Positions 1,122-24,010 of a stretch of DNA of 63,768 nucleotides are shown in pieces. The notes below the pieces were generated by a model, which was given only the letters and a program-made list of their open reading frames with translations, was not told where the DNA came from and ran no database searches. The DNA is from Schmidtea polychroa (Eukaryota). The stretch lies in the NCBI GenBank assembly GCA_044892525.1, contig CM097885.1, positions 176,514,001 through 176,577,768 on the forward strand. Reading direction: 5' to 3'. A program made the translations under genes and the position numbers. Within the stretch, counting starts at the first letter, position 1. Every line of letters starts with the position of its first letter.

Positions 1122-1384
1122 TAATCACGCTGACAAAACTCACGCTAACGTACACGAATGCAAATTTATCGAGGTAGGTCAAAATCCAGAAAACTTTCAT
1201 TCACCCCCGAATTGATGCTCATCTCTTCACCAAAATCAAAATAATAAGAACATCACGTTTATTATAATGTCATAACACTGAATTTTTGTACATTACGGAA
1301 ATTATTACCGTCAGAGAAAGAGTCAATGAAAATATAAGGTATTAGATTACAGCGAATGGCAGTCATTGAGATCGCGGTGGGTTT

Positions 1385-2134
1385 TCATTTTTCCCACTCG
1401 GTATCTTTCAGCAGTTCATCTAGATCAAAGAATTCAGCGGCGTTTTCTTCCCATGACACTCCAGTGGCTGAGACAATCGGCGCTGGAATCCCTGCGGTTA
1501 GATCAATAGATACATGAGAGTTATCGCCCTTGGTGAGATTTTCTGTGGAAGGGTCGTTGGATTTCGTTGATGCTCACTCACGCTGCCTCTTCTTGCGCTC
1601 GGCCCTCGATAACTGCCGACGCTTAGGCTTCGATATTGGTTGATTCCCCTGCAGCCCTACGGGTGCGGGTATGATGTGGGACTGTACTTTGCTGGTTCCC
1701 GTGAAGATAATATCCGGACGCTTCGGTGAGAGTTTGGTTTCGACGCACTCATGACAAGATCTTTTAAATGGAGACGATGATTTCGCCGAAGTGTCATGAT
1801 GCACTGGAAACAGGTTATCGGCTTCATTTATAGGAATTTGAACGATCTTCTTGGTCGTCGTTGCCTGGACATATACTTTATGTAATGCTTCGGACTGTTC
1901 TTTAATTAAACTTCGTTGGGCGCGGCTCTCGGAGATTAGAGCGTCCCGGCAGTGCTCGCTACGATATAGCTTTTTCTGCACTTCTTTCATTTGCACTGGG
2001 CTGAACCATGTGCCTTCCAGTTCGTCGATCTTACGTTTGTATCGACCGATCTGGGCTTGTAGGTCTTTGATCACCGCATTTCTATCCGAGCAGGAGAAGC
2101 AGGGACGTAGTGTTGGCTTGTTGTTCGGTATCAT
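1385..2134 (-). CDS. Uncharacterised element-encoded protein (CxxC, coiled coil, Arg-rich motif, acidic C-tail); in-frame TGA at 1574-1576
   Basis: Track ORF 1574..2194; the probable start is the ATG at 2134, just after a TTCGTTGTAG acceptor. After the TGA the frame continues 62 codons to SWEENAAEFFDLDELLKDTEWEK* (1385), matching homologues at 7268-7755 and 9001-9749. Confidence 0.65.
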
Positions 2135-2667
2135 TTGGATTACTACAACGAAAGGAAAAGTTATGACTACATCGGCAAATCGTGGATCAGACATAATGAC
2201 TTATTCACAGTTGCACGATTACTAAGGAAGGAAAGGACAAGATGAGTTGATGAGACAATTTTCCTCCCTTTGTGCTTAATCGCTGACATTCTATATGTTC
2301 TTTACAAGAATCACCCCTTAAGCCCTATATCATTCCTCTGACGAATGCAAACTATTTGTTAAAATTCAAAAAATTAAAAATTAACAGATTCATTAATTCG
2401 GAAATTTCCCTTTGGGTTACATAATTATGCATCACACCGAGAAATGAGATATACTACGCTGATCAATGCCCCAAACTTTCTCCTTTATGTCCTCCTAATA
2501 GGGCGCATATATAGGTAATCAAGAATTTATTGCTTAGATTTAATTATTAATTACAGCATTTAAAACAAATTTATTATTATTATCTATAAAATTTCTGTCA
2601 CTATTTATTAATGTCCAATTTAAAATATTCGCTATCGTATTCAACAATAATTCTATAATCAGTTAGA

Positions 2668-3117
2668 ATGTTGAGTCTAAAAGGTCGGAGTGTTATCACT
2701 ACTACCTTATCTAAAATATACCGATGCTGTTTCAGATACTTAACATTGAAAATTAGTTAATAGTTAATCCTAAGAATTTAACGCCTACTGTTATCGCTAC
2801 ACGAGATTTGTTACGGTAAGCATCTGCCAATCAAAATACATTGTATCTATTACTCGATACACTCATCTGTTATTACTTGTAACGACGGAATTTACACTGC
2901 ATATGTCACCTGGTGGAACGGTTATTTATCAATCATGTCGTTTCTCATTCACGCTCATGTTCAACTCTCATGGTTAGAAAATTGCTTTTATACATCTTCT
3001 ATTCACTGGAAATTTTCTGATACTCACATGTGGCATTGGAAAATTTTAGTTATCATCTCAACCTCTAGTTGTTTCTCACGGACATATGATGTTGGAATAG
3101 GTTATGATGAGTCGTAG
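2668..3117 (+). pseudogene. Antisense cargo ORF remnant in LTR-like copy 1 (hydrophobic, Cys/Trp/His-rich)
   Basis: One frame is open for 112 codons (2782-3117) in AT-rich DNA, in frame with an ATG at 2668 across three stops; no family recognised. Confidence 0.35.
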
Positions 3118-4957
3118 CTTCGTCAATATTGGAGATGTAAATAATATGATACCCCATTGCATAGATCGTTCAATCTCTATAAGTCCTATTTCAAGAGTAG
3201 ATATTCAAATCAATCGTAGAAATTCATTTGTGTCAGGTAATACGAATTGGTTATATGTGTGTATTAAATAAATCTTTGTCGCAACTTATTGTTATGAGTT
3301 GTTTTATTTTTTGACAATTATTGTTCATTTATTACTTTGTATCGACGTCAAAAGATCAAGATCTCGAATTTGGCTTATTGTCGCGAAAACTGAAGTTGAA
3401 TTCAAATTCTTAAAACGTCATAGAATTGCTTTAGTAGTGAAGGTTGATCGAGATTTTTTAAAGAACTTCGTGAGTTTAGAATTGTCGACGAAAATGGCAA
3501 GAGTAGCTTGGAAAAATAACACTTAACATCCCAGAGTCATTATGGAGACTCCCTCAGTCGCTGTGAAGCACATGTCTTATCCTACTACAAAATCGAAACG
3601 CATTATTCAATCTATGCCCTGACATTTTTACAGATTTTAGGTCACCTTCAGCAATTAGACCCGTGAAGAAGCCTTCACATTTCGGCCCAATCTAGCTGCG
3701 TGATTGAAAAACTCCATGTCCACCGGTGGAGCTCCCGAAGGCACCTCACACCATGACATGGAGTATCTCAACTCCACGTTTCTCGAAAATTTTTTGATTC
3801 ATAGAATTCTAATTCATAAAATCTTTGTTCATAGAAAAATCACAAAATTTCTAAATAAAATTCTTTTATTTCTACCAACTACAATCAACATCCAAATTAC
3901 TAAATTACTAATAATTAAAACGGAAATCAAATGAAGAGAATATTCTTTACTCATATTATATCAAGATTTTAGTCAATATTAATCATTTCAACTACTTTTA
4001 ACTTAGAGATAAGAGTAAAATAAAAATAAAGATCTCCTTACTATTGTGATCGGGGTTGAGGCTGAGTCAAAAACGTGTCGATTATGGCTTTACAACTAGT
4101 TCGTCTAATTCTGGTACTATTTAGTCCTTGAATGCTTAATCCGATAATGCTGTCGTCAAATTCGGTTATCCTTGAGTTACTGTGATCTCGAATGGTCGAA
4201 TTAACAGTTGATTTGCTGAAGTATTCTGGCTCTTGAATAAGTCCTATAAAATTTTTGAGTAAACGGTCATCTTAATGATTTTGGTGCCGGTTTATATAGT
4301 GATTTTTTATTTATGCGGACCAATCAGAATTGAGTACTGCTTATTTTATTAAATTAATTTGCTTTTCCTTATTTCTTTGGACTTTTTACTTATTTTTCCT
4401 ATTTTTATTATACCTTGTATTTATTTCTTAAATTCCTTATTATTTGTTGCATTTTTCGGCATCTTATTCGTTATCTTATTACCTTATTTTTAATTTTTTT
4501 CATTTTTTATTTTTTGTTTTAATCCTTATATTTCATTTTATTATTTCTTTCATACCTTAACTTATTTATTTTTAAAATTTGTTGTCTTAGTTTATTTTAT
4601 TCACATCCTATCTGTCTTAATTTTCGACGTTTTCCAAAGTTAACTTTTTTGACTCAGCCCAACAAATCGAATACGAAATTCAAAAAATTTACCGAAGTAT
4701 GCTTTACCAAAAATTTATGATTTGAATTTATGGTTTTAAAAAGTTTTCGTGAGTGTGGTTTAAATTTGTTTTATATTTTTCCAGTCTTCTTTAGGTAGTG
4801 TTTGTGACAACAAATTGTATTAAAATTGTAAGTATATATTAATAAATAGTTATTGTTAAATTAATTTTATTGGAAAACAATTGACGTTAAATTTATGTTA
4901 AATTGTGTTAGTTTTACTTAATTATATGTTAAATTTCTCGGTATTATTTTAGCCATC

Positions 4958-7054
4958 ATGAAGCGCGGTGGACAACCAGTTTTGTCTGATTTTTTTTCTA
5001 AAGAAGGTGAAGCCTGGTCAAGATATGACGCCAATAACAAACAGAAGAAGCAGAATCGCCACATTCAGCTAATACTGTGCAAATCAATGACGAAGTAAAA
5101 CACAATCTCCCAGATTGCTGGAAGCCCTTGCAATTTCAAGATTTTCAGAAGAAATATGATGGCTTATTAGTTCGAAATAAAAAATTGGGTTGTAATTATT
5201 GCGCGCAAATAGATTCAATAAAAGCGAAGGGAATTCATGTATCAGTTGAATGGAAAAGCTGCAATATTGAAGCATCTGGAAAAAATAAAACCATTCAACA
5301 AGCATTTCTCCGAAAAAAAATGAACACTTTTTATCTAAGGCTCACCAAGTTAGTGTACATCAGTTAAAAGGTCGTTCACAAGACGTAATTTTGCAATGTT
5401 TCGATAAAAGTAATGAAAAATACGTCGATTCTACATGTAAAATCTTTAATACTGTTTACAGTATAGCAAAAAGATGCAGACCATTTTCTGATATTCAAAA
5501 TGGGATTGAACTACAAGTTAAAAATGGATTGAGCATGGGAGTGAGACTCCATTCTCGCAAAACTGTAGTTAAAATTATTGATCACATTGCATCAGAAATA
5601 AAAAAGGAAATATTTTGCAAAATAATCGCAAAGGATTTGAAAATTTGCATCATAATCGATGAAGCCTCGACTATATCTAGTAAATCTGTACTAATAATTT
5701 ATTTAAAAGTTGAAGATTCTGATGTGCCACCAACAATATTTCTAGATTTAGTTGAATTGGAAGCATAAGATGCTGAAACCATATACACGACCATGTTACA
5801 GAGTATATATAAAGTTGAATTCGATATAAATTATTTGAAATCAAATTTGATTGCATTTTGTTCTGATGGTGCAAGTGTAATGCTTGGTCGTAAATCAGGT
5901 GTCAGCTCAAGACTTTCAAAAGATTTCCCTGGCACAATTATTTGGCATTGTTTAAGCCATCGTCTGCAATTGGTTTTAGATGATTCTATTGACACAATAA
6001 AACAAATAAATCATTTCAAGATATTTATTGATAAAATATTTTTCATATGATAAAGTGATTTTTCATAAATAAAATAAAAATCAGTTAGAACTTAAGAATA
6101 TTTCTGAAGAACTTGGGCTAGAAATTATAAAGATTGGCAGCTTAAGAGCAACAGTTGCTGTATGGAGGGCTTATCCAGCTTTATATAAATATTTTGTTTC
6201 TAATACGAAATATTCAGGAATGGCTAATCGACTTCGCAATAAATTCTTTTTACAAGATTTAGCAATAATGATTGATATTTTGCAAGAAATTTCATGTTTC
6301 AAACGCGCTTCAAGCTAGAAATTTAATAAAAAGATCCATGTTGGCCATTAAAATGATTAAAGAAAATAAAGGTATATATGAAAAGAAAGTGAATGAAGTC
6401 ATCAATTCAGATGCTTTTAAAGATATTAATTTTATAGAGCATACAATTTACAGTAGACTCCCTAGCCAAAAACTATTGGACGCAGTAATTGCTAATATGA
6501 GAACAAGACTAATGGATGATGATAACCATTTATTGGCAACAAAAAGTACGAAAAATGATACCAATAAACTTTTTGAAGTTATTAGCGTTCTGGAGCATGA
6601 TTCTTGGAACATCGATGAGATTGTGGTTCCACGGATAGCCGCAGAAGAGAAATTGGTCGGATTCACAGATATTTTTAAATACAACATCGACGTAAATGAC
6701 TTCCGTGACTTTTTGGAAAATGTTATAAGCAATCGCGAAATTTTTTTCATTCCATAATCAATACAAAGAGCAAAAAACATCAATACTGTAGCGATTAGTT
6801 CTGCGGAAGCAGAAAGAGGGTTTTCTACAATGAATCTAATATATTCCGAAAAAAGAAACCGTTTAATTGTTCAAAATGTTGCTAATCTCATGGTAATAAA
6901 TTTAATTGGTCTTCCTTTGGACATATGGAACCCTGAACGATTTGTTAAAACTTGGTTGAGGAAGAATCACTCTGCAGATGACAACAGAGTAAAAAAACCT
7001 GCACCAATAAACTATAATAATAATCAAATTTCAATTTGGAAATATTTGAAATAA
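4958..7054 (+). pseudogene. Disrupted hAT transposase (KIAA1586/ZNF862-like)
   Basis: Fragments show IIIDEASTIS (catalytic D), [25 protein letters not shown] and ISSAEAERGFSTMN plus the dimerisation domain; several stops and frameshifts. Confidence 0.9.
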
Positions 7055-7267
7055 TTTTAAACACTTTTTATATATATATATATATATAATAACTATCCTG
7101 TTTCTATTACCTTTTTTTAACTGTTTTAATTTAAAATAATATATGAAATTAAATAATGAATTGAAATAAAAACGATATCAAATTTTTGATTTTTTTTACG
7201 GCCGAACCGGTTCTCAATTGTTTTCCGGATACGAACCGGTTGTTAAATATTTTGAATCCCACCACTG

Positions 7268-7755
7268 ATGCAAGCATCAATTACAAAGAAGATCGTAGAC
7301 ATACCCATTGCGGAAGAAGACAACGTATTCCCGCACCACCATCTCTCATCGGCATCGTTATCTAACTCAGCTAAACAGGCACACCTGATTCATTCGAATA
7401 CCCTACGGCCAACAATCCCTGCCGAAGTAATTAGTACAGGCACTAGTCGAGCTGCCCCCAGAAAATAGATCTATCGACCCCATTCACTCTTCCGGAGGCG
7501 ACGAAAATCACCAAACGCCGGCAACCGTCTAGGGCCGAGCGCACAAAGAGAAGGAGGGCTCTCCAGGCTGAGAGAGAAGCGACTCTCATCGCCTCCGCCA
7601 AACCCCAAGCTCCAGTACCTTCAGCGGAAACCGTACTTCGTTCTCCTCCTGCGTTCAGGGTAATTCCGCTCACAAGTACGTCCTGGGAGGAAGACGCCCG
7701 AGACTTTTTCGATCTCGACGAGATCTTTGCCGGAACTTCCCCAAATACATTGTGA
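7268..7755 (+). pseudogene. 3' half of the element-encoded protein (copy B), one frameshift near 7455
   Basis: QASITKKIVDIPIAEEDNVFPHHH, EVISTGTS, TKRRQPSRAERTKRRR and TSWEEDARDFFDLDEIF align motif by motif with 1385-2134. Confidence 0.75.
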
Positions 7756-8102
7756 TTCGTTTCTTGTGTCGTAACTCATAAATATATTTTCTTGTCGTAA
7801 TCTATAAATATGTCTTAGTGTTGTAAATTATAAATATATATTCGTGTTATTGATCGATGAATTAAACGATTTCGAATGTTTGTTGGTGTTGAAGTCTGCG
7901 AATATGAAATTAAGCAGTGAATGCGGGGAGTGAAGATTAGAAGGTATATGGTAAGGTCAAACTTGCAGGGTAAAGAGGTGACGGAAAAACTGTAAATCTT
8001 TGTTGGTGTGTGTTGGAAGGAGATCGTTTTGGAGAATAAGGAATCATGGTGGAGATTGTTCGATGATGGGAATGATGCGTGCAATCCTTGAATGATGAAA
8101 AT

Positions 8103-8240
8103 GACGTAAGCCCTTCTAACGGCAGTCGAGTGTTAGTTAAGTCGAGTTGGGATGAAGGAGTAGCCTAAGGCAGGGGCTCACCTGCTTCATCGCAGCTCGC
8201 CGACATGACACAGCACCAACATGATGCGAATTGGTTAAGG
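8103..8240 (+). ncRNA. Conserved structured RNA motif (copy 2)
   Basis: GACGTAAGCCCTTC...GAGTTGGGATGAA-GGAGTAGCCTAAGGCAGGGGCTCACCTGC-TTCATCGCAGCTC. Confidence 0.6.
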
Positions 8241-9000
8241 GTCCCTTGGAACGATGACATGCTGCATATGCATTTAGGACTACCATCCCCTAGTAAGTGA
8301 AAATGTTTTCTGACCCGACCCAAGGCCCAGCAATATAAACACCGGAAGAGTCACATAATAATGCATTGATCTCCAGAACGAGGGAAAATGACGATAAATA
8401 ATAAATTTTCACCAAGTGCAATGATAATGTCAACATCTGCTATACGGCATATGGATCTCTAAAACTACTTCCAATAAATGTACCGGATATGCATAGTTAG
8501 ATTCCCCGAAATGTCAGTTATTTCATACAGTAGAAAGGCTACAATTTTGGAATGCGATATAAATTTTAATTTAAATCAATAATTAATAATTTTCCCCGTT
8601 GAATTTTCCTGGTAATAGTCGTTTTTTTTGCGACGTCATTCGAGCAAGTTGTTACCGAAATAAGTAATATTCAGTTATTAAGGTGGGTCGTCATACTCCG
8701 ATTGAATCTAGCCGGGGCTTATTCGATTGAAATTATAGGTTCAACCGCAATTAATGTGAGAAAGGTGTTGATATTAGGTTTGGCGCAGAATGTTGAACTT
8801 AACGGTATTAAATTTCGAGCGACGAAACCGCTGGCATGAAATGTTAATATGATTGATTGGAACCAGGGATGTTGCCGGTATGTGAACCGAATGATGAATG
8901 ACCAAAGGAGGGGTGAATGAGTTATTTTAGTATGCATCTTTCTGCCTGTAATGTGATTTGACCGAAACTCACTTATTTTCTTAATAAATTCGTTTTAGAT

Positions 9001-9749
9001 ATGGCCGTTCCGAACGCAAACAGCTCTACTCTACGACCTTGCTTTTCTTGTGCTGACAAGAATGTGTCAATGCACACCTTACAACTTGAAATCGGACACC
9101 TGAAAAAACGTACTGACTATTGGGGGGGGGGGGGGGGGGCGTGGTCACCCCCGTCCAGATGAAAGAAGCGAACAAGAAGATACTCCGGCTCGAACATTGC
9201 CGAGACAGTCTCTTGAAGGAGAGTCGTTCACAGCGTATCCATCTGCGAGAACAATCCCGAGCACTACATAAGGTTTGAACGTCTTTGGAACTCAAGAATC
9301 GTATCAATGGGTCTCCGGCTGTCGATCAGGGGAACATCTTTCCCAGCCACCATCTGAATGGAGGGGCAAGTTCCATGTCCGGGACACGGGAACGATGTGA
9401 GCACGCCATCAGTTCTTGAAGTCATCTACATCGGCACCAGTGTAGCTCCAACACCCAGCAAGGCGCCTATGTGGCTCCGGTCCCAGTTGTCGTAACCGGA
9501 AAACCCAAGCGTAAATCTCGTACACGCGCGGAGCGAACACAGCGTCGAAGAGCAAAGCAGGCAGAATCACAAGCAGCCCTAGACGCTTCCCATGCCAAAG
9601 CAGCTGCTGACATGGTTGCTGCAATCGAGTTCGCCAAATGTCCACCGTACCGAATTTTGTCTTCCGTCGGTTCCCGAGGAACGGAGGAAAACCAAGCCGA
9701 TTTCGCTCTTGAACAACTCATGCGAGAGGCCGAAGAGGAGGGATTTTAG
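9001..9749 (+). pseudogene. Near full-length element-encoded protein (copy C), disrupted
   Basis: MAVPNANSSTLRPCFSC...PVQMKEANKKILRLEHCRDSLLKESRSQR...EQSRALHKV*, NIFPSHH, EVIYIGTS, KPKRKSRTRAERTQRRR, DFALEQLM. A G18 run (9122-9139) and stops break it. A degenerate right end CCCCAACG lies at 9881-9888. Confidence 0.75.
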
Positions 9750-9889
9750 GTATCTTCTACCTCAATTCTACCCCAACCCAAGACGAGGTAGGATTAAGCG
9801 TGATGATTGCGGGAATTGAGCCATGAATGTATGATGTCTCCTAGACTATCAAAACGACGTGAGTCAACTTGAAGGGAATACCCCAACGA

Positions 9890-10770
9890 ATATATATACG
9901 ACTATGGGGTAAACGTCATTGACAATAATATTATATCTGCTGTGGTAGAAAGACAGGAAAACAATGAAATTGATACATCCCTCACTGGAATAAAGCATAA
10001 ACGAAGAAAATGACTATGACAAATTCTTTAGACTGTGGGATGCTTCCTCAGGAGGGGCGATGAAATCACCAACAGGTAGTGATGTGATCTTTCAACCCCT
10101 CGAGACTAGATATGATAATCTACATGAGACAATAGAAAGAATTGCTAAACAAGCAAATATGCAGGACGCAGAAACGATGATACGAGGTATGGGAAGGCCT
10201 CGAAAATCTGAAATCGCTGAGAAATCAGAGGAAAGAAAGGCAGCGAGCGTCTAAAAGATATAGCAAACAGGATGTTCCAAAAATCCAGGATGATAATAAA
10301 GAGGTGAATATGATAACGGAGCTAATTAATGCAATGAATACGAGACGATTCCCAGAAGCAAGACCATCAGTGTTAATAGAAAATATAGTTAAAAAATTTA
10401 AATTAATGAAGAGATTAGGGAATTGAGTACAGAGGAAGCGAATGTAGAAACGGTGTTAAAAATATTATTTACAACAGGAGTAAATAGGGACAAAGTGATT
10501 ACTGCGATGGCATATTTAATAGCGAGATACAAAAAACTTCTACGAATGAATCCAAAGGATCAAATAGAAAACATAGCTAAGCTGATATATAATAAACTAA
10601 AGATGGATGCTATGCCTTGGGTAACATTAAAGGAGGATGGAAATACTGTATGATGAGAGCCTAATAGAACGAGAAAGTATAAAAGCCAATAACACGGCGG
10701 AAGTAGATGATACGGAAGAGGCAGTTAAAAACCTTGTAAATAAAACCACTATGAAACCAAGTGTTAGATG
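9890..10770 (+). pseudogene. Decayed ~290-codon ORF of unknown family upstream of the env-like ORF
   Basis: Consecutive ORF pieces (10060..10254, 10423..10653 and intervening frames) joined by frameshifts and stops; helical, charged composition; not recognised. Confidence 0.4.
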
Positions 10771-11887
10771 ATTAGGGTAGGCCCATCACTACATTTACCC
10801 TAGATAAATATTACAGAACGGGGTCAAACAAATATAGAGTCAACGTGTACGCCGAAGAACGCCAGTAAACAAAGTTTTCTCGTTGATATCCATCTATGCA
10901 ATCCAGATCGACAACCAAACAATCCAATTTCCCAAACAAGAGCCAATAATTGAACTTTCATCGATATTCATTTGTGTAAATAACTATGCGTTCAAAACTT
11001 TATAATGATTCATTTTTCTTCGGTGTAATAGCTAGATATTTTTAATCATGAACTATATCGAACTTTAATTTTTATTGAATTTGTATATTTTTATTGTGAA
11101 TTTTTATTTTTATGTTCTCAGTATATTTCTAATTTTTATAAACACAAATAAAAATAATGGGTATTTAAGAGAAATTAATTTAATAATATCAGATTAAAAT
11201 TTCAATATAGAATTGAATAACTTTCAGATTAATAAATTACCATTAAAAAATTGAATAATTTTCAAAAACAAGTTCAATCCAATTAGCAGATATAGAATTT
11301 AATAATTTCCAATGTCGATTCCAATAAACAGCAGTAGAATCAAAAAAAATTAATATTTATAATAACTGTAGAGAAATTAAGTGAATATTTGTTAAACATT
11401 AGGCATATGAAACAGCAGTAGAATTAAAAATACATATTTATAATAACTGTTCAACATTAGATATAGAAAAATTAAATAAATATTTATTAAACATTAGGTA
11501 TGTAGAAAATTTAGTATATAAGCGATCATTAAAATCAGTTTATTCGCCCAAAAATTTTGCGAAAAACTCTTATTCAAAGGTTAATCCTTCGAATAACTTA
11601 ATCCGCGAATCAGTACAAAAAGATTCACATATTGACGAAACATACTAAGGTATAACACGCATACACAACATATAACAATACACATATAATCTTTACAAGC
11701 ATTTCAGGAAAAGTTATTGAAAAGAATTGTCAAAGTATTACAAATTTTCTATACTTGGTAATTGTTGATTATAATAAATTTTATTACATATATTTGTCTT
11801 TGTTTTGATATATATATAAGAACCAGTAAGTTGAGTGTTCCCGAATATCGAGGCCTCAACACAAGTCAAAAGGAGAGAAAATCGAAA

Positions 11888-12070
11888 ATGTCAATAGTAA
11901 TAATAGTAATAACATTATTATTAGATTTGATAAAAGGGAATAATGCAATCATAGCGTATGACTGTCAGAATCCCAAGTGGGGACAAAAGTATTCATTATT
12001 ATTTGTAGAAAATTGCCCATAGGCAAACCCAACAAAATTAATCATGGCAGACCCAAAGACCTTAATTTAA
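11888..12070 (+). pseudogene. N-terminus of a chuvirus-like / retroelement env-like class III glycoprotein, truncated
   Basis: Signal-peptide-like MSIVIIVITLLLDLIKGNNA followed by IIAYDC-x8-YSL-x5-C, the pattern I recall at the start of chuvirus-type glycoproteins and related retroelement env ORFs; continues *ANPTKLIMADPKTLI. TATA-like tract about 70 nt upstream. Confidence 0.55.
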
Positions 12071-12528
12071 CCTCCAGTAATTTTAAAAATTGATGAGTCA
12101 TCTGATGAGTCAAACTGATGAAACCGATAGAAATTTTAAAAATAAATTAATAAAAATACGCCCCTCCTCCCCCTCCCCCATTTGCCCTCCCTACAATGAG
12201 TCATATGTTTTTGTTCCCGGCTCCATCCTACTTGAAATTTTAAATGAAAGTTATTTTGATTTATAAATTTATTTTGAAGGAACCTGATGAACTTAGGGTT
12301 GTGAAAGGATTACAACTTGTAATGTATTGTTAAATTTTATCTTTTTCTTTTTTTTGTTGGTTTTAGTACAAAGTGTATTATAATTTTACACGTCGCACGT
12401 GGAGAAGATTTTATTTATTTGTTTTTTTATTTAAAAAAAACTATATAGCAATAATTTTTATCGCTATAGAAAATTGAATTTAAAAGATTAAAAAAAATCA
12501 ATAAAACATTTTTAAAAGCAACTAAAAT

Positions 12529-12870
12529 ATAATTGAAAACTTGTTCAAATATACAATTGGAATCTTGTGCAAGGATATAATTGAAAACCTATTCAAAGCT
12601 ACAATTGAAAACTTATTCAAAGATACAATCGAAAACTTATTCAAAGATACAAACGAAAACTTATTCAAAGATACAATTGCAAACTTATTCGAAGATACAA
12701 TTGAAAACCTATTCAAAGATATAATTGAAAGATATAATTGAAAACTTATTCAAAGATACAATTGAAAACTTATTCAAAGATACAAACGAAAACTTATTCA
12801 AAGATACAATCGCAAACTTATTCGAAGATACAATTGAAAACCTATTCAAAGATATAATTTAAAAAGATAT
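12529..12870 (+). repeat. 24-bp minisatellite (ACAATTGAAAACTTATTCAAAGAT), about 13 units
   Basis: Directly visible tandem units, with a higher-order duplication of variant units; translates to TIENLFKD repeats. Confidence 0.9.
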
Positions 12871-13299
12871 AATTGAAGAAAAAAAAAGATTATCACTAAC
12901 TATCGTATATCCTTGAGAATAATAAGTGAATCAAGAAGACTTTTGAAAGAAAATTAGTATATCATTGTAGAAATTCCTACTCATTCAAAAAAAACAAGAT
13001 TGTTAGATTTACTTATATTTTAATAAAAGTTAAGGATATTGTTTTGTTTGATTACTTTTCATAATATATTTGTTATTTGCCTACATAAACCGCATAGATA
13101 TAACATACACATACGCCAACTGTCCCAAACAGTTATTTTTGCGGAGACTCTGTTGGCCTCTACAATTTTCCTATACACAACACCATCATATTACTTTTTA
13201 CTGAATAAGAAGAATCTAACACAACTTATCATTTTTATAATGAAAAATGATCCTAATTTGTTTAAAGCTTAATGCGATTATGAAACTGGATTACATTTA

Positions 13300-14410: not shown

Positions 14411-16074
14411 CCGTATATTTCGGCGTATAAGACGACCCTTAAAGTCAAAAAATCAAATTTGAAAATTGTGGGTCGTCTTATACAACCGATATAAAAGAAA
14501 GTATTACAGTACAGGTAGTTGTATTTATACTACTTTTATGCATATCTAAAACCCATCAAATTCATCACCATCATCACCGTCTGTTTCGAAAAGTTTTTCG
14601 AATACATCACGAGATTCATCACAGATGCCATCATCGTAGGGAGTCCATTCTGGTTCTGGCAAGTCGACTTCGGCTTCATCTTCGCTTTCATACAATAAAT
14701 CATCCTCACTACCATCCATGGCATTAAATATTTCACATTTTTTAAAGGATTTTATGACACTTTCTACCTTAACATTATCCCATGCTTTTATAACAAACTC
14801 GCAAAGAACATCAAGTGAGGCACCACGCATAGCTCCGTTTTTTCTAAATGACTTTTCACCATTCATCATCCACTCATTCCATTGTGCTCTAGCATTATCC
14901 TTGAATGGCTTATTTAAGCTTACGTCAAGCGGCTGAAGTACAGAAGTTAAACCACCTGAGATAACCGCAATATCGGTGTTGTTGCGCGCTAGAATTAGCC
15001 GTTATATGGCTCCGAAACATATCCCAGACCAACAAACTGCGTTCCTTTCGCATACCACCTGGCCGTCTGTTCCAAATATTTTCAATCCATAACTTTACAC
15101 CATTCTCGTCCATCCACCCTTTCTCGTGGAAGTGAACCAAAAGTTATTTTAGGTTTTGTTTTACGTTTAAAGATAACCATTGGTTTCAATTTAGTACCAT
15201 CTGCCATGCACCCTAATACCACTGTAAATCTTGTCTTCTCGTGTCCTGTACTTTTCACGTTTACTGTTCTTACACCTTTAAAATCCACTGTTTTATTACC
15301 AAGCATGTCAAAATTCATTGGAGTTTCATCCATATTTCCGATATGGGATAATGGAAATTTATGCCTTTTCCTTAGCTGAATTATGAAATGGTGGAAGTTT
15401 GTTATTTTGTGCTCGAGATCTTTTGGTAGTTTCTGAGCGATTTTTGTTTTTTCTCTTATTACTAAATTTCTTCTGTTCATAAACCTACTGCACTATCCCA
15501 CTGTAGCTTTGAAGTCTTTACTTTCTTCTTTGTTTGCCTTGGCCCATTTCAAAGCATGAGATCTTATTTTATTTCTGGTCACAATGTAGCCATCTTGTCT
15601 CTGCTGGAGTACCCATTCTGCAACGTCGTCTTCCAATTTCGACCAACATGTGATTCCTCGCCGCATTGCACATTTGTTTTTGGGCATTTGTCTTATATCA
15701 TCCTCCTTCTTTCTCCATTCTCGTACCATCTTTTCAGTAACATCAAATTGTCTTGGCTACGTCTACGACTTTCAACTTGAAACTTGCCTCATATTTTCTT
15801 CTTTTTGTTGGCGGTTCCATTCCTGATATGGGTTTAATAATAAAATGACCACAATCTATACCAATCTATACTGAATCTATACTAATAAATCATCTTTACA
15901 TAACCAATATTTCATAAGATACCGGGTGTTGCAATCTCTAGCCTAGGCTAAACAAACATGGTTTCGTTATTTAGCAGTCGTCTTATACAACCGATATATG
16001 ATAAATCATAAAAATTTGCTCTAATTTTGTACCTCGTCTTATCTGACGGTCGCCTTATACGCCGAAATATACGG
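14411..16074 (-). mobile_element. pogo-family (POGK/pogoR11-like) DNA transposon
   Basis: TIRs CCGTATATTTCGGCGTATAAG(A/G)CGACC at both ends, TA on each side (14409-10, 16075-76), internal GTCGTCTTATACAACCGATATA repeats. Confidence 0.92.
14546..15820 (-). pseudogene. Disrupted pogo transposase
   Basis: MEPPTKRRKYEASFKLKVV (Brinker-type DBD), HTH_Tc5, GNMDETPMNFD, LLVWDMFRSH (DDE_1) and an acidic tail; frameshifts and small deletions. Confidence 0.9.
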
Positions 16075-16925
16075 TAATTTACAAGGATTCAGCAAAACAA
16101 AAATTCTGAAATAATATAACAATGAATTTTAAATTTCAATGGAAGCCACACTGAAATTCACAAAGATTTGCAAGCGCCTTTCAATGTTAGATTTGAATTG
16201 GTTAAAAGCTACAAAAGAAGTTATATTTGTATTGGATTGAAATGTGTTATGAAAGAATTACTGTGAAATTGGCATTCGATAGAAAACTGTCAATAAAATG
16301 TTAAAAAATAAAATAAAATCAGACATCTTTTATTGTTCCTAACAAAATAATATAAAAATTTAGTGTCAGCAAATAGAAAATTTAGATTTAAAAGTCATTA
16401 AATAATTTCAGAAAATAAAAAATGTAGATTTTTCGTTAAATTAATAAAACCGTATTTTAAGAATAAAAAACCGGAGGTCGTTGACGTAAAATAACAAAAG
16501 AAACCGTGTTTTTGGTTACTGGGGAAACCGGTTTGCAATCACCAGTCTTGGCACAATTACTAATAACATTTATTTGCAACATGCTATTCTTTTTATTAAG
16601 AATCAATTATCTCCAATTTTCTATCAAACATAAAACTGTATCACAAAAAATTAACTCGAAAACTGATAACAATCAAAATCAAAATTTATAAGTTAACTAT
16701 TTTAATTTAAAAAAATAATAATAAGTTTTCAAATATTATTTCAACTAGAAAACCATTTGTAGTGAAATAAATGAAATAATATTAATTGGATTTTCCAAAA
16801 ATAAGCAACTAAAATCAGTTGTATCCATAACTCTAAAGTTTATTAACATAAGTTTTGAAATACCAGGTTCATATTTTGCGAAAAAATTAGCTAAGATATT
16901 TATTTTGGAACTCAGAAATAGCGAT

Positions 16926-18689
16926 TTATTCGATTTTGTTCATTTGATTACTTGACAAATCATTTATACTCTGGGATTTATATGTGCCATTTGAGTTAGA
17001 TTTGCTTTGTAAATATGGTCTATTTACTGTATCCCCGATAATTAAAGCTGAATATCGACGCCTGATTGGACAATAAGAACGGTTTGTTGGTTTGAATGTC
17101 AATTCTGAATCAGATGGTGAACCTAAATTTTTACAGTAACTTTTAATTTTGGATTTTTCATTTATAATCTGTTTCTCGCTTAATGATCTTTTCGGTAAAT
17201 ATGAGTCATCTTTTAATAGTCGTTTCTTTTCTGACTGAACTAATCTAACAAGTTTAGCCACTCGATTTCTTTGATCACTATTTAGGTAATATCTCATTTT
17301 AGAATTGTTCAAAGATTTCCTTTTATTTTTTAGCGTTTTTTTTTGAATTTCATTGTTCTCAATATTTTCTCCATGACTGTTTTCTAATGAAAATTTTTCC
17401 CCAAAAGGTTTTGCAATGAAGTAATTGTATTGTTTTAATAACGCTAATATATTCATTTTAATAGCGTTGATAATCGCTTGCATATTTGAAATTTGAACGA
17501 GTAAGCATGATTTTTCTAACGGTTTTATAAATTTGATATATAATTCCAACCAAAAATCAGAGAATAATGGAACTTTAGAAAGGGACTGATAAATATAGGA
17601 ATTAATTTTAAACGACGTTTTGGCAACGTAAATCCAAGGCATTATTCTAAGAACTTCTCTAGATAAATTAGGATCTGTGGAATTGAGAAAGTTTATAATC
17701 CCACCTTCGCTATTTAAGCCTATAGAAACAAAATATTCGGTTAGAAAATACCAAACTTTGTAGTTATTGATCCATGATATACAGCAGTTCAAATAGGACG
17801 GGTCGGATATCAGAGGAATTTTATGAATTAGTGTGTCAAGGGCGTTTTTATTCGTTGAAAAAGCGTTGGTGCTAGTTTCTTGAGGTTTCCTACTGATATT
17901 TGATTTTGTTAAGCAAAGCGAATCTGTTTCTTCCAAATCAGATTCTTGAGATGATTTAAGTTTGAAAATTGAAATTGTATCTGATTCATTTTTTAGTTTA
18001 ATTTCATTTGCTGATCTCCATCGATTGCACTCAATCAAAAATTCTTTTGATAATTTTTTGGAAAAATTTTCATTCGTAGGAATGTCGCATGTGAGTGAAG
18101 ATAATATATTAAGAGCAATAAAATTGAATTTACGACGATCTTCGCGACGCTTGGTCATAGAAGGTCCAGGAGGATCGATCATTACGACAAGTGCTGATAT
18201 ATTATCTGCTCTGATTCGACGACGTTTCCATTGAGAAATGGAATATTTTACCAACGAAGCTGCAGGATTGTAAAAGAAATTTGAATTGATATTTGGATCA
18301 AGAAATACTCGACGTTCAGTTTCTCGTTCACATATTCTAACGAGTTCTATAGCAGCTTCAACGGGTACGACATTCCATAAACCATCACTTCCAAGTACAA
18401 TGCACCTATGTTCTGTTGAATCGAGTGAAATGCATATCACATCGGGTTCTGGAGATATGTGATATATACCTTGATTCTGGTCATAGCTCCATAAATCACC
18501 AAGTGATCTAGTTACTGCGAGAAATGGAACCTGTTCATATTCGACTGAATCACCTTCAACGATATCTTTTTTTTTATTAGAATTTTTAGGTCTATTCCAA
18601 ACTACTCGTTGGACACCGCATTTCTTTGCTAGCATACCACCGTATTTTTCTATGCGTTTCTTTTCAACCAAATTGGATGGTTTGTGTTC
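16926..18689 (-). CDS. PPM1D: PPM1D/Wip1-like PP2C phosphatase, exon 3
   Basis: After the acceptor ttcag at 18690: EHKP...RVVWNRP...VPFLAVTRSLGDLWSYD...SPEPD...CIVLGSDGLWN...RIRADNISALV, all PPM1D-type motifs, followed by a long divergent C-terminus. Confidence 0.88.
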   Translation of the reverse strand, partial: EHKPSNLVEKKRIEKYGGMLAKKCGVQRVVWNRPKNSNKKKDIVEGDSVEYEQVPFLAVTRSLGDLWSYDQNQGIYHISPEPDVICISLDSTEHRCIVLGSDGLWNVVPVEAAIELVRICERETERRVFLDPNINSNFFYNPAASLVKYSISQWKRRRIRADNISALVVMIDPPGPSMTKRREDRRKFNFIALNILSSLTCDIPTNENFSKKLSKEFLIECNRWRSANEIKLKNESDTISIFKLKSSQESDLEETDSLCLTKSNISRKPQETSTNAFSTNKNALDTLIHKIPLISDPSYLNCCISWINNYKVWYFLTEYFVSIGLNSEGGIINFLNSTDPNLSREVLRIMPWIYVAKTSFKINSYIYQSLSKVPLFSDFWLELYIKFIKPLEKSCLLVQISNMQAIINAIKMNILALLKQYNYFIAKPFGEKFSLENSHGENIENNEIQKKTLKNKRKSLNNSKMRYYLNSDQRNRVAKLVRLVQSEKKRLLKDDSYLPKRSLSEKQIINEKSKIKSYCKNLGSPSDSELTFKPTNRSYCPIRRRYSALIIGDTVNRPYLQSKSNSNGTYKSQSINDLSSNQMNKIE

Positions 18690-18755
18690 CTGAATTATGT
18701 TTCGAATTGTGTAAATTTTTTACTATTTTAATATATTTGGAATATTTTTATTATA

Positions 18756-19641
18756 CAGGAATACCTCGAACAGTACGGTTAATCGATTCTGGAATTTAGC
18801 CGTACTATTTGAAACCGAACTATTCGAGGCATTCTGGCGCTAATAAATTTAGGGCTTAGTACCCATATTAAGAAATTTAAAAATCGTGATTATAATCTAG
18901 TAAACAAAAAATATTTTGTTATGTATTTTCATTTTTCTGATATTCAAGAGCAAAACAAGCATATTTAACACAGTTGTACATTTAAATATATATTTATTGA
19001 AATTTATAAGCCGGCTCCATGTTAACCATTCGAGGGCTTCTAATTCTGGTTACCACTTTTGACAAATATGACGCCGTAGCTATACCTTGCGACTTTTATT
19101 GATCTTTATTTTTCACAATTTTCCGAACTGACGCCTCGTTCATTCCCCTTTCTTTTCCTACTTTAGCAAACGAAGCCCCTTCCTCATGAAGTTTATTAAC
19201 GCTAAGCTTCTGTTCTAAAGTGAGCCATTTGCGTTTTTTGGTTGTGGACTCACTTTTACACTTTGTTCTGCCACTCATTTTATTTTTTAAATTAATATAT
19301 AAAAGTCAACATACTCTACGATTAAAAATATAAAACCAACAACTTTGATCTATTATCGCGCGATCGTGAATGTATCCGTAGTGAAATTTTTTACGGTTTA
19401 TTTATTCAATTTTTTATTAAAACTACAAACCTGAAATTAAACGTAACAAAACATATTATTAAACACGTGCCGTATGATTTTATAATAACGAATAAATTCT
19501 AAAAAATTAATTTAAGAAAACTTTTTTAAATTTCGAAAATTTTATTTAATCATTTTAAAAACAATCATATTTTGAAAATTTCAAAAACTGTACTATAAAG
19601 AAACCGTACTGATCGAAACCGTACTATGCGAGGTATTCCTG
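18756..19641 (-). mobile_element. Non-autonomous Tigger element in PPM1D intron 2
   Basis: TIRs CAGGAATACCTCG...CGAGGTATTCCTG, TA target duplication, psq-HTH remnant KRKWLTLEQKL (19096..19278). Confidence 0.85.
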
Positions 19642-20351
19642 TATATACAATAACATGAAAAGCATGAACTGGTTATATCCAGCGAAATAAGTCATATATT
19701 AAGTAAGAGTTGTGTAAGAGACGAAAATCCAAATTTTCGTATATTAAATATCATTTGAAACAGAAAGTTACCAGAAAAACTGCACGCAAAAATTGGCCAA
19801 ACATATATCTTATGCCATGGAAAGTTGATGAAAAATAATAGTAAAATTCAAATAAAGAAAACTATCTTAAAAGATGGGAGCGCCCTAAAATACGTCTTCC
19901 ATAATGTCAGAAAATTTTTATTATTTGTCTTCTAAAAATGCTATTTCTTATTGTAAGTGTTGTTATGTTTATATATTTCCATATAAATAACTATGACAAC
20001 TTCATTATATCTCATATGATTTGACTTAAGAGAAAGGAATTTTGTTTGGTATATCGCAAATTTATTTAGTAGAAAACAGATTTTTTAGATCATAAATTAT
20101 GCGTGATATATTGATAATTTATATATTACAAAATAAGATTATATTATTAAACTATAAAATAACAAATTTATAATTAACTATGAAAAAAAATTGTTTATCA
20201 CTAATGAACTAATATGTGAATGCATAAGATCTTTTTGGAATTCGATTATTGAAAGTATGATAAAAGTTGCTCTTTGATGTGTTCACTTGATTGTATGTCA
20301 AAAGATTAAAGTTACATCAATTTATAAGCATTATGAATTAGGCCCTATGAT

Positions 20352-20445
20352 TAAGGTGACCAGACGTCCCGGCTTTGACGGGACAGTCCCGATTTTTCAC
20401 GATTTATCCCGCGTCCCGCAACGTTTTTCAAAAGTCCCGACTTTT
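20352..20445 (+). mobile_element. hAT-like terminal fragment
   Basis: TAAGGTGACCAGACGTCCCGG...GTCCCG repeats resemble TAGGGTGACC-type hAT ends; partner end not identified. Confidence 0.4.
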
Positions 20446-21269
20446 AGAATTAAGTTAACTTTTATATGTATGAAAATCATTGTTTAGGATTCTTAAGAAT
20501 CCTACGGACTACTAAGACTAACATATTGCTTTTCTTACCCAGTTACATTGTATTTGTTTCTTAGATAATACACTTTATTAAATGTTCAAAATAAATCTGG
20601 GTCTGATATGGGGAAATATAGAAATATTAACTATTTTATAATGGTGTGTTTTGAAATAATTCTCTGAGATATTTGTCAATTTACAATTACATCGTAGCTT
20701 CAGCCGAACGTAGTTTTTCGTTGTTAAAATTACATTTGATATGCAATAAGTTAAGATGGTTTTGGCTATGTTGTCTATCGGAACCGGGGTATCAAATTCC
20801 AAAAATTTTGATGTAATTAACGAATTTATAACGAAAAAGACTAGAAAATTTATTTAATAATATTTTATTATTCTATATAATATAAAATAATCTGTTTATA
20901 ATAAAAATATTATTTAAATGTTCTTTTTTTTTGTCCCGCGCAAGTTTTTAGCCAAATCCAGTTTCAGTTTTAACAATTTGTATGTACTGATGCGTTTTTG
21001 TGCCAAAATTAGAGCTCGAAAGGAATGCCTTTTTAGTAGCTTTCTTTTCGTTAGCAACAGTTTTGAGTAATATGTATTTTTATCTAGCTTTCAAAGAAAT
21101 CAGTTAAAATGATACTTTTAGCATTCCTAAGAGTGATTGGTTGATGAACTAATTTTCTTTATACGGCACTTCGGTAGATAATATACACTGTAACGACTCT
21201 TGCTATTCTTCGAAATTTAAAGGGACATTGATGTTTCGTTCATAGTAATAGTACTCTCCAAAAACCAAT

Positions 21270-21455
21270 CGCCATTGATGACTTCAAGTATTTTTGAAGA
21301 GTGGCTTCATACAAATGATAAAAAATGTGGCCAAGAAAGTAGAAACGTATGCCTTTTAATTGATAATTGTTCCTCTCATCCGAAAATATTGACTAGAGAA
21401 TTGAGTAATATAAAGCTGATTTATTTGATTGAATCACTTAATGCTATGAGATGAA
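21270..21455 (+). pseudogene. Tigger DDE transposase remnant in PPM1D intron 2
   Basis: Frame reads LMTSSIFEEWLHTNDKKCGQESRNVCLLIDNCSSHPKILTRELSNIKLIYL (Tigger WMT..F..W / LLxDNCxxH motif). Confidence 0.75.
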
Positions 21456-21935
21456 GTCTAATTAGTATCATGGGAGTACCTAAGTGGATTGGCTTATGGG
21501 ATACAATCAACTTCCATGAAAAAACGTAGCCCAGCGACAAAAATGAAGCAAACAAGGCGATTACCTCCTGATATATAGTTTTGAAATGTTTGTAAAGGCT
21601 AAAGTGAATGAACCAACAACAAAACTTCTAAATCTCTGCAAGAATTTCCTCAAGTATATCTACATACACGAAACAGAATACCTCCATTCTAATTAAAAAG
21701 AACTGCAGTAGTAATTTTATAATTTTAATATAAACTGAATTTTAGAGAATAAAAAGCTTCATGCAATTTCGAATTTATAAATATAAATCTAAAATAAGAA
21801 AACACTGATGTCATTCTAACTAACATATAAATATTGCATCATCGTCTTAAAAATGGATATGAAAATGTAATTATGTAGCACATAGATAAATTATTTTATT
21901 AAAATTTATTTTATTTAGAGTATAAATAAGTATAC

Positions 21936-22114
21936 CACAGTCAAACACACTGGTTCCCATGAATCCGTGCGCGCAGAGACAATTTTAGAACATCCGAGAA
22001 CACATGCCGAATCTCCAACGTGGCCAATGTACAATTTTCTATTTCTTACTATAGCAATAGTAACCGTTGTTCCCGCTGTACTGTCAAATCCGCTTATTGT
22101 TTTTGACCAATTTT
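21936..22114 (-). CDS. PPM1D: PPM1D-like exon 2
   Basis: NWSKTISGFDSTAGTTVTIAIVRNRKLYIGHVGDSACVLG...CLTV; AG acceptor at 22116-15, GT donor at 21935; splices in frame to EHKP. Confidence 0.88.
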
Positions 22115-22167
22115 CTAAAATATAAATTTGGTATTTTAATTTAGTTTTTTTAATAATATAATCTTGC

Positions 22168-22465
22168 CTCTCTCTTTCCACATTAGCTGATGTGTGTTAA
22201 TAAACCCTTGCTTAATAGCTGATAGAACATCGTCATCGTTTTCACTCCAGAATTGTGAAATTTTTTTAATTTCATTTATTAAGTTCTTTTTAGCAAAACT
22301 GGCTGCTTCTGCTCCACCATGCCCATCAAATATTCCAAAAAATCCAAAAACAATACTTCCATTCACTTTTTCAAAATAACACTTGGAAAAATCTTCCATA
22401 TAGTTTCGATCGCCTTTGTCTAGACATTCTGTAACTCTTAAGTTAACGCCAATTTCAAAAACCAT
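22168..22465 (-). CDS. PPM1D: PPM1D-like exon 1
   Basis: MVFEIG...DKGDRNYMED...FFGIFDGHGGAEAASFAK...HQLMWKER; ends at a GC donor (AG/GCAAG). An upstream ATG at 22489 is an alternative start. Joined CDS is about 746 aa. Confidence 0.85.
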
Positions 22466-23429
22466 TAAAATAAAACGATAAATTATCATTCATTTTAAAT
22501 ATTTCATAATTTAAACACAAATATTGCATTTTATTAATTTTATTGCATTTTTCAATTAGACTTAGTAATTTAATAACATTAGGAATATTTTTAAATAAAA
22601 ATAATTAAAAACCCTTATTTAATTAATTTTATTGTACTTTTAAATTACATGGATTCCGTCAAGAATATTTCGTCTACGTCTCAACCTAATCTTAATGCAG
22701 CGATCTTCTATGTCTGATCCGTGTGTTGGGTTAGAGCCGAAAAATTGAGAGCTTGTTTAAATACGTCCGAAATACATAGCATGGAAAATTCCCCTAGTCG
22801 AATCAAATAATACAAAGCAAAATATGTAACTCCGTGAGGATAAATAAACAGGTATAATAAAAATTAAATTGCAGTTTCCAACATATTTAAGGAAGAAACA
22901 GCGAATTCGAAAATTCTGTCAACTCGGAAAGTAGAGAATAATAAATAAAAGAACGAATTAATAATATAAAAATTTTAAATGATTTTGGTCTTATTTACAT
23001 ACGAAGGACCACATTCAAATTAATTAAGAATGTTATGGCTCTTATTTGCATAAAACAATTCTAGAAAAAATAAATCTCATTTAATTTAAAATAAATTACA
23101 TAAATCTGGCAACACCCGAGTATGTGTGCGCAGGCATTCTTAAATTTTTAGAATTAAGCACTCTCTGATTTAAAGGAGTGGCAAAGAATATGTTGGTGGG
23201 TATTACAAATTTGTATTAATACCGACCAAAATTTCATTATTTCAACTGGTTCTAATTTTTTTAGCTCTGACAAAATTTTATGCTCTCAGTTTTTCGTTAC
23301 TAACTGAGTTTTATTCAAATTTTATGCATTAATATTTGTGATATTTCAATATTAATAAATTTTTCGTTTTATTTTTCATTCTTTTTTATATGCTTTCTAT
23401 AAATTCTATTCTTTTTGAAACGGCCCATA

Positions 23430-23889
23430 AACTATCAGGCCAGATTGGTCGCCAACAGTGGGATGGCGGGGACACCTCGAGTAGACGTGTCTCCTTATAC
23501 CATGAGAAATATCTGATTATAATACCTTTACGACCCAAGATATGGTTTAAAAGAAAATTCAAAGCTCCAGGTAACTAAGTCTTTTACTATATCCTGACAT
23601 GGCAGGCTGGTCAGCTAATGAGGACACCCATAAGAGGTCAGAACTGGACATGGTTAAGAAATCTGGTAAACAAACTTGACGCCCGATGTTCCAGCGTCGG
23701 TTATCAGTCGTGGTGGACCCAGAACGTATCGACCCGGTGATATGCACGTGCTCATTGATATGGTTATTGCCATAGGTACACGGATGGTAAAAAGTAGAAT
23801 ATTCATGAAGGCGTTTAGGGAGGAGTTCGTGACAAATCTAACAATAACTCTGAAATGTTAAAATAACACATCCCCTAGGCGCCAACACG
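23430..23889 (+). mobile_element. LTR-like element right end (divergent copy)
   Basis: CATAGGTACAC..GATGG...GGCGTTTAGGGAGGAG aligns with 29226-29292; ends CATCCCCTAGGCGCCAACA. Left boundary approximate. Confidence 0.55.
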
Positions 23890-24010
23890 TGATTCTAATG
23901 TTCATATCTCTTATAGGCACCTGATCTTCTTTGATCTGCTTCCTTTGAGCTTCAATCACCTTTTTCAACTTCTTCACATAGTCAGGATGAAACCATGTTG
24001 ACTCTAGGCT
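23890..24010 (-). pseudogene. Fragment of the element-encoded protein (copy D)
   Basis: RRY*SLESTWFHPDYVKKLKK aligns with GRYKRKIDELEGTWFSPVQMKEVQKK of copy A. Confidence 0.45.

Follow-up and report, generated by a model that had tools for sequence, protein, structure and literature searches.

The analysed window, a stretch of 63,768 nucleotides (nt) from Schmidtea polychroa (assembly GCA_044892525.1, contig CM097885.1, positions 176,514,001 to 176,577,768), carries decayed copies of an open reading frame (ORF) that lies within the long terminal repeats (LTRs) of a giant Ty3/gypsy retroelement. This LTR ORF is under purifying selection. In our favoured reading, to which we assign a probability of about 40%, the LTR holds a gene for a protein of about 250 amino acids (aa) that would be made from a spliced mRNA of the LTR's TATA promoter and act, like Rev or CERV, as a nuclear regulator binding the element's own RNA. 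We do not class the protein as Rev, as it has neither homology to Rev nor a shared export signal.

To assess selection, we used the copies of the whole genome (781 Mb, four large contigs). Querying with the copy-1 protein yields 6,438 first-look candidates, and 138 of the 150 scored ones show no stop in the matched part, a fraction biased by taking the best hits. From 66 stretches, 64 of them with the start motif, we dropped broken, short and duplicate ones, such that 56 distinct full-length frames remained. These belong to three subfamilies (A, B, C) with 32-45% identity between them. The pooled pairwise ratio of nonsynonymous to synonymous substitutions (dN/dS) is 0.09 for A (19 copies), 0.12 for B (16) and 0.14 for C (21), values that the picking of intact top matches biases somewhat low. 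The preliminary description of the window had proposed past selection on the protein, which is thus confirmed. The lowest ratios are found for residues 1-114 (0.02-0.07 where dS is estimable). The basic stretch (0.06-0.10) and the acidic tail (0.05-0.13 within subfamilies where estimable) also have low values, and linkers mostly show 0.2-0.4. Variants shared among copies have dN/dS values of 0.06-0.25 and private variants of 0.31-0.43, as would be expected if selection acted mainly during replication.

Many ORF matches form same-strand pairs about 26 kb apart. Five of seven such loci are elements with the ORF in both LTRs; the other two were rejected as LTR pairs, i.e., they are larger duplications. 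The LTR pairs of the five elements are 4.0-4.2 kb long, 99.88-99.98% identical, end in TG...CA and show 4-bp target-site duplications (TSDs). The ORF is located about 2.7-2.9 kb from the LTR start, in the same sense as gag-pol. That is, the earlier claim of an ORF inside an LTR-like unit holds for full-length elements and for a solo LTR in the window. The full-length elements measure about 30 kb and have polyprotein open frames of 4,732 and 4,811 codons, with Gag, CCHC, viral fusion glycoprotein, protease, reverse transcriptase (RT), RNase H, integrase and ankyrin repeats. Monjiviricetes_fusion (E 3e-71) is placed ahead of the protease domain RVP and Ank_2 behind the integrase, and the order protease-RT-RNase H-integrase is that of Ty3/gypsy. 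Separate ORFs encode a RING protein and a TRAF-like RING+MATH protein, the latter behind pol.

The available part of the Burro/GYPSM1 description gives a length of about 30 kb, multi-kb LTRs and a single ~4,900-aa polyprotein, in which an env-like fusion protein of the mononegavirus type sits in frame after gag and ahead of the protease; ankyrin repeats and MATH_TRAF, BIR and BCL2-like motifs are reported for it as well (PMC6431247). Our elements agree in size, multi-kb LTRs, the Gag-CCHC-fusion-protease-RT-RNase H-integrase-ankyrin polyprotein and the MATH/TRAF cargo. They differ in that MATH/TRAF is a separate ORF behind pol and that the published text, in that part, does not mention an LTR ORF, an intron or RNA structures (PMC6431247). 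For our polyprotein, Pfam gives no BIR, BCL2 or MATH match at E 0.001, the published calls having used other methods. The host element, left unrecognised in the preliminary description, is likely a member of this known planarian family, assigned by the published description.

Further observations concern the element's internal region. Between pol and the 3' LTR, two loci (L136:1-4600 and L032) have four or five accessory ORFs, i.e., the TRAF-like RING+MATH one, three without clear Pfam family and a small one that directly follows pol. TATA-like and TGTAAATAAA motifs stand ahead of several of them, such that internal promoters are possible. A primer-binding-site-like stretch is found 7 nt behind the 5' LTR, which we take to resemble the complement of the tRNA-Pro 3' end. 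In one element, 8 nt of this stretch recur in the invariant loop of the post-ORF RNA element (L118:5300-5325; see below). The same element has no purine-rich tract ahead of its 3' LTR, and its polyprotein frame is open for 185 codons ahead of the first ATG (L118:7924-8480), such that Gag may start via a splice or a non-ATG codon. Another element (L045-L047), with LTRs 99.98% identical, is internally deleted: gag is missing, and the end of pol remains together with every accessory ORF. This element is likely a recently mobilised non-autonomous form.

We classed 58 LTR stretches, which gives 25 solo LTRs with TSD, 8 joined to internal sequence and 25 left unassigned. The long open frame is kept in nearly all of the 25 solo LTRs. 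Copy 1 of the window also resides in a solo LTR, with a 4-bp TSD at 850-853 and 4665-4668 and four blocks that are 67-88% identical to the LTR of a full-length element. This solo LTR sits inside a hAT-like DNA element (648-7267) with terminal inverted repeats and a broken transposase.

To locate the copies in the window, we ran a profile built from the 56 natural intact genomic copies against it (Table 1). Copy 1 is matched at 2131-1388 (E 4e-119), copy 2 at 7268-7746 (E 2e-32 and 2e-19) and copy 3 at 9001-9740 (E 2e-43 and 2e-14). These three are decayed LTR remnants of three subfamilies. Of the four motif-bearing copies reported beforehand, copies 1-3 are thus found in place, and copy 4 is weak by itself and gains support from its relatives. 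Taken singly, it reaches only E 0.93 with tblastn and E 0.48 with the profile, or E 0.0055 after adding ten distant library relatives. Reading through X, its query gives 143 genome matches, some to the first 65 codons and some to an unrelated repeat behind. Its genomic relatives, which we call family D, have decayed frames of about 150 codons that keep the W..P core, the coil and the Lys/Arg-rich end, lack both CxxC and acidic tail, and match the LTR ORF profile with E values down to 9e-9. We therefore rejected the idea that copy 4 is unrelated sequence.

The conservation of one ordered motif list in all four copies, as stated earlier, does not hold in full. Copy 1 carries all listed motifs, interrupted by an in-frame stop at codon 187 (1576-1574). 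The list is a composite, i.e., the other copies lack parts of it. Copy 2 has a frameshift near 7450. Its first part, with CxxC and coiled coil, is missing, since the copy directly adjoins the terminal repeat of the hAT-like element, which ends at 7267; the LTR of copy 2 ends near 8332 according to the comparison with subfamily B. Copy 3, whose LTR remnant shows 70-78% DNA identity to its nearest genomic relatives over 8332-9883, is damaged: its frame shifts in a run of G near 9122-9139, is interrupted by stops (9276 and 9417) and changes once more. Its tail differs from SWEE/FFDLDE. Within the genome, FFDLDE is confined to two subfamilies, and the third ends in PVDIDE(I/M)LA. Hence, the FFDLDE tail, on which the earlier activation-domain reading was based, is the least family-wide motif, and coil and Arg-rich stretch persist in distant relatives. 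Behind copy 3's LTR, 11876-12040 (+) resembles the signal-peptide start of the env-like fusion protein (31% identical to polyprotein residues 1780-1834) and is likely decayed internal region.

We next consider the LTR as a gene. A reverse CCAAT box plus TATA box is found in 46 of 63 LTR stretches, the other 17 being stretches that did not reach or keep that part. The pair sits near the LTR 5' end, and no second conserved pair was seen in the LTR. Counted over related and thus not independent copies, a donor motif occurs at TATA+54 to +57 in 39/46 LTRs compared to 117/16330 control windows (0.7%), and a YAG (Y, pyrimidine) precedes the start ATG by 0-9 nt in 60/61 copies compared to 1393/5357 other ATGs (26%), or in 59/61 compared to 7% when a pyrimidine tract is included. 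The donor offset is fixed in all three subfamilies. The spacer between donor and acceptor varies from 1.8 to 2.6 kb and is, within A, only 17-44% alike outside a conserved block, yet the splice signals hold in the three subfamilies. Given the varying AG-to-ATG distance (0-9 nt), the upstream exon would be non-coding; a coding first exon was rejected, since that distance does not keep frame. An AATAAA follows the stop by 85-150 nt in 18/19 A, 14/21 C and 1/16 B copies. For the internal accessory ORFs of two full-length elements, an AG is found 0-6 nt before the first or second ATG in 5/5 cases, which is as expected for one donor serving many acceptors.

We also looked at sequencing reads and retrocopies. 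Among the joints listed (15 of 42, from four sequencing runs), none is a junction at the predicted acceptor. The one run, presumed to be RNA, that covers the ORF shows little coverage over part of the predicted intron, which does not count as evidence for splicing. Its apparent long joints were rejected as splicing, since similar motifs in another subfamily account for them. A search for intron-less retrocopies gave 0 matches, which is uninformative.

The LTR also holds two candidate RNA structures, one within the predicted intron and one behind the ORF, both scored on the same alignments from which they were derived, which favours the structures: for the intronic element of A, 8/48 pairs show a compensatory change (9/500 shuffles reach that count), and for the post-ORF element 16/28 pairs do over three subfamilies, with 97.5% of cells paired compared to 83% in shuffles and 36-47% when slid. 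The post-ORF alignment comprises 23 sequences from three subfamilies, chosen out of 46 with the motif, and its apical part is nearly invariant. For the intronic block, subfamily B shows an analogous, weaker fold (3/43 pairs, positive covariation term, six sequences), and a motif search found a matching block in only 4/20 C loci. Sliding-window folding, with 12 shuffles per window, results in z values of -9.9 (A), -3.5 (B) and a weak -2.2 (C) for the intronic element and gave no signal for the post-ORF element. In Rfam, no credible family was found for either element (four loci). Given their predicted places, i.e., intron and downstream of the poly(A) signal, both structures would be present only in unspliced or read-through RNA.

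The model of the post-ORF element also matches copy-3 relatives and, weakly, several family D loci. A further copy is found at 29086-29266 (+) with 99.5 bits, likely marking another LTR remnant. In the subgroup closest to copy 4 (L211:886-1692; window 23891-24698), the match precedes the ORF by about 400-450 nt, and in other family D loci it follows the ORF; the position of the family D gene with respect to the LTR end may thus have changed.

Table 1. Features of the LTR ORF family in the window; splice, promoter and polyadenylation features are predictions.
Feature	Position	Strand	Basis
Solo LTR, subfamily A, bearing copy 1	854..4664	-	TG...CA ends, TSD
Predicted LTR promoter, reverse CCAAT box and TATA box	4291..4327	-	motif pair in 46/63 LTR stretches
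Predicted splice donor position, TATA+55, not intact in copy 1	4242..4245	-	window letters
Two-hairpin RNA structure inside predicted intron	3625..3790	-	covariation in 12 subfamily-A sequences
Predicted splice acceptor, 8 nt before copy-1 ATG	2143..2160	-	YAG motif
Copy 1 of LTR ORF, subfamily A	1385..2134	-	249 codons; profile match, translation
Candidate polyadenylation signal, 122 nt behind copy-1 stop	1258..1263	-	AATAAA
Structured RNA element behind copy-1 ORF, likely U5	962..1146	-	covariation; model match 177 bits
Copy 2, subfamily B, 5' side cut by hAT-like element, frameshifted	7268..7755	+	profile match, translation
Post-ORF RNA element of copy 2	8078..8278	+	model match 136 bits
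Predicted splice acceptor of copy 3, 2 nt before ATG	8985..8998	+	window letters
Copy 3, older decayed subfamily, in LTR remnant at about 8332-9887	9001..9749	+	profile match
Copy 4, N-terminal piece (65 codons) of distant, shorter, decayed family D	23891..24085	-	genomic relatives
Weak RNA-element match upstream of copy 4	24527..24698	-	20.4 bits, rough E 4e-4

The coiled-coil, Arg-rich and acidic parts named in the preliminary description are all present in the protein family. AlphaFold2 (49 sequences) predicts helices at 15-41, 48-100, 182-211 and 242-249 with disorder between (mean predicted local distance difference test score 65, predicted template modelling score 0.34), and a predicted dimer with zinc scored 0.60 compared to 0.51 for the control. 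The basic stretch has 11-12 K+R in 24 residues in all three subfamilies. Of the 23-27 residues of the tail, 7-9 are acidic. The tail pattern hydrophobic-D-hydrophobic-D-x-hydrophobic-hydrophobic recurs in the three subfamilies and in two library relatives.

A match to a known Gag or host family, which would speak against a new protein family, was looked for in Pfam, PDB and Foldseek searches, and none was found. For two intact copies, 0 Pfam families are reported, with only generic coiled-coil matches among 49 members. PDB gives 0 sequence matches and Foldseek 0 matches at E 0.001, viral folds included. Pfam finds neither a Gag capsid domain nor a CCHC knuckle in the LTR ORF, and the element's Gag sits in the polyprotein. 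A word-based protein search returned 411 candidates, none significant, and the best ESM Atlas values (0.83 and 0.87) are below lead level. A full HMMER scan of 1.84 billion representatives finds ten relatives (E 2.5e-9 to 5e-5). Seven of them are joined to unrelated host domains and are likely chimeric gene models. The one relative that we compared with the genome is at most 51% identical to anything there, such that the family likely exists in another genome. The library relatives lack CxxC; coil, N.(I/F)P..H motif and Arg-rich stretch are retained in most of them. One distant relative scores 19.1 bits against Pfam REV, below the cut-off of 22, which is likely compositional.

In the favoured reading, i.e., a Rev/CERV-like RNA regulator, transcription would start about 30 nt behind the TATA box, with the donor about 25 nt further, such that the gene would reside inside an R region of about 3.3 kb. 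With a donor this close to the start and a poly(A) signal already in the 5' LTR, transcription would by default yield a short spliced RNA whose 3' end is set by the AATAAA downstream of the ORF, and solo LTRs could make the same RNA. Genomic RNA would have to escape both the early donor and the 5'-LTR poly(A) signal. The protein is envisaged to oligomerise through its N-terminal CxxC and coiled coil, to bind one of the two structured RNA elements via its Arg-rich stretch and to recruit a host factor by its acidic-hydrophobic tail. As a result, unspliced read-through genomic RNA would be made, kept or exported. In favour of a Rev-like function, we count that the Arg-rich stretch persists in library relatives and that family D retains its Lys/Arg-rich end.

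Several observations weigh against this reading. The splice, start and poly(A) sites are all predictions from motifs, and AATAAA is missing in 15/16 B copies. No nuclear-export-signal pattern is common to all three subfamilies, and half of subfamily A has none. Pfam, PDB and Foldseek give no link to Rev, Tat or CERV; a direct comparison with CERV was not run. Two features are like those of DNA-binding activators: the basic stretch runs into the predicted helix 182-211, and each subfamily shows purifying selection on the tail. Furthermore, the RNA structures could instead be packaging, dimerisation or priming signals. Doubtful in our view is the extended version, in which the LTR by itself makes up a whole gene, intron included, that resides in the ~3.3-kb R and encodes a new RNA switch of the Rev/Tat type. 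Every insertion, solo LTRs among them, could then supply the regulator in trans, and the genome-wide pool of solo LTRs would time the production of genomic RNA by full-length elements.

The alternative that survives best, which we still consider unlikely, is that the protein transactivates the LTR promoter, either by binding DNA itself or by being tethered to it, similar to Tas of foamy viruses. Here, the basic helix would serve DNA binding or nuclear import, the acidic-aromatic tail activation, and solo LTRs would feed a positive loop. The tail's acidic composition may fit such a role, as may its hydrophobic-D pattern, which the three subfamilies have in common with two library relatives, and the helix predicted directly behind the basic stretch, with the conserved promoter motifs as possible target. 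We presume the tail to be akin to those of VP16 and Tas. However, no known DNA-binding family or fold was found, family D lacks the tail, and transactivation by itself does not account for the escape of genomic RNA from a donor that lies just 25 nt downstream of the predicted start.

Rather less probable is a protein directed at the host that would, e.g., suppress PIWI/piRNA silencing or modulate cell survival. Such a protein would be comparable to Sag of mouse mammary tumour virus (MMTV), which is LTR-encoded as well. The element bears other cargo of this kind (the RING ORF and the TRAF-like RING+MATH ORF), and smedwi-2 RNA interference raises BURRO1 RNA (PMC8532177). The share of solo LTRs with TSD (25/58), nearly all with the long open frame, would suit it as well. 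Still, rapid evolution is common among host-conflict proteins, in contrast to the strong constraint on the N-terminal half here, and the Arg-rich stretch is left unexplained.

A different mode of expression, which cuts across the other readings, we regard as improbable: the ORF might lie in U3 with the genomic start behind it, or the acceptor might be used by spliced-leader trans-splicing. Planarians use trans-splicing, the start and end sites considered here are predictions, and an R of 3.3 kb would be unusually long; that no intron-less retrocopy turned up would agree as well, although it is uninformative by itself. This mode has to face the single conserved TATA/CCAAT pair near the LTR 5' end and the fixed-offset donor in three subfamilies.

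A nucleocapsid-like role in the particle, structural or as a chaperone, with binding to the structured elements in packaging or reverse transcription, would draw on the basic stretch, coiled coil and CxxC, on the intronic element at the usual place of packaging signals and on the 8 nt that the invariant post-ORF loop has in common with the primer-binding site, but we find it very improbable, as the element already has a Gag with CCHC knuckles and solo-LTR expression would be of little use for a structural part.

Beside the LTR ORF family, the window contains a 24-nt-period tandem array (12471-12928), a 98-99% duplication of about 430 bases with a PP2C-like phosphatase gene end (16724-17144 and 25447-26335, spanning an N run) and a two-exon host gene recognised by eye as ribosomal protein L15-like (32892-33560, +). 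Elsewhere in the genome, a Polinton-like cluster with DNA polymerase, integrase and capsid-like ORFs, again recognised by eye, adjoins LTR copies (L040-L041).

With regard to novelty, the element type, accessory regulators and LTR-borne ORFs as such (CERV; MMTV sag; Retand ORFs) are known already. In the literature searched, we found no description of the Burro LTR ORF, its splice signals or its RNA elements; the primary genome paper, the Repbase entry, figures or supplements may show the ORF. Burro elements are among the largest LTR retroelements known, abundant in a main regeneration model and targets of its PIWI pathway. With regard to how an RNA of 30 kb is made when a donor is predicted almost at its 5' end, a candidate regulator, a predicted mRNA junction and two candidate target RNA structures can now be named. 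If true, invertebrate Ty3/gypsy elements would have invented a Rev-like regulator a second time, independently of CERV, and solo LTRs, usually seen as dead remnants or bare promoters, would be protein-coding units.

Finally, we compared the LTR gene with known systems, using the available parts of the cited sources. Rev and Rex come from fully spliced products and combine an Arg-rich stretch and oligomerisation helices with a structured RNA kept only in unspliced RNA. The gene proposed here is similar to Rev, Rex and Rem (PMC9412291) in its Arg-rich stretch and, by prediction, in its spliced product, helices and structured RNA, and differs by the missing homology and export-signal pattern. With MMTV sag/naf, it has in common that the whole ORF is located in the LTR and, by prediction, expressed from LTR promoters; sag is a host-directed superantigen encoded in U3 (PMC9412291), whereas our ORF is located downstream of both the predicted start site and a predicted intron that lies within the LTR. 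Foamy-virus LTRs also have their major splice donor upstream of the polyadenylation signal, but these two are not described there as flanking a whole gene (PMC3694450). Here, about 3.2 kb with intron and ORF lie between the predicted donor and poly(A) signal. The plant Ty3/gypsy elements Retand/Grande likewise have extra ORFs that are conserved and have been proposed as regulators; these are antisense, lie between pol and 3' LTR and have a TRP28 domain (PMC11963269), for which no match is found here.

A further counterpart is CERV of the C. elegans element Cer1, which is needed for the export of unspliced genomic RNA and has a basic nuclear localisation signal and essential cysteines (PMC10309623). 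As such, it qualifies the preliminary view that a layout with an accessory regulator is unusual for invertebrate retrotransposons: the layout is rare, but with CERV as a Rev-like accessory protein it has a precedent. Both are novel accessory proteins of invertebrate Ty3/gypsy elements with a spliced mRNA (predicted here), coiled coil, basic stretch and cysteines. CERV comprises 517 aa, shares exons with Gag, shows G-protein-like and ring-forming domains and is encoded in the internal region (PMC10309623), whereas the LTR protein has ~250 aa, is mostly helical or disordered and is encoded wholly within the LTR.

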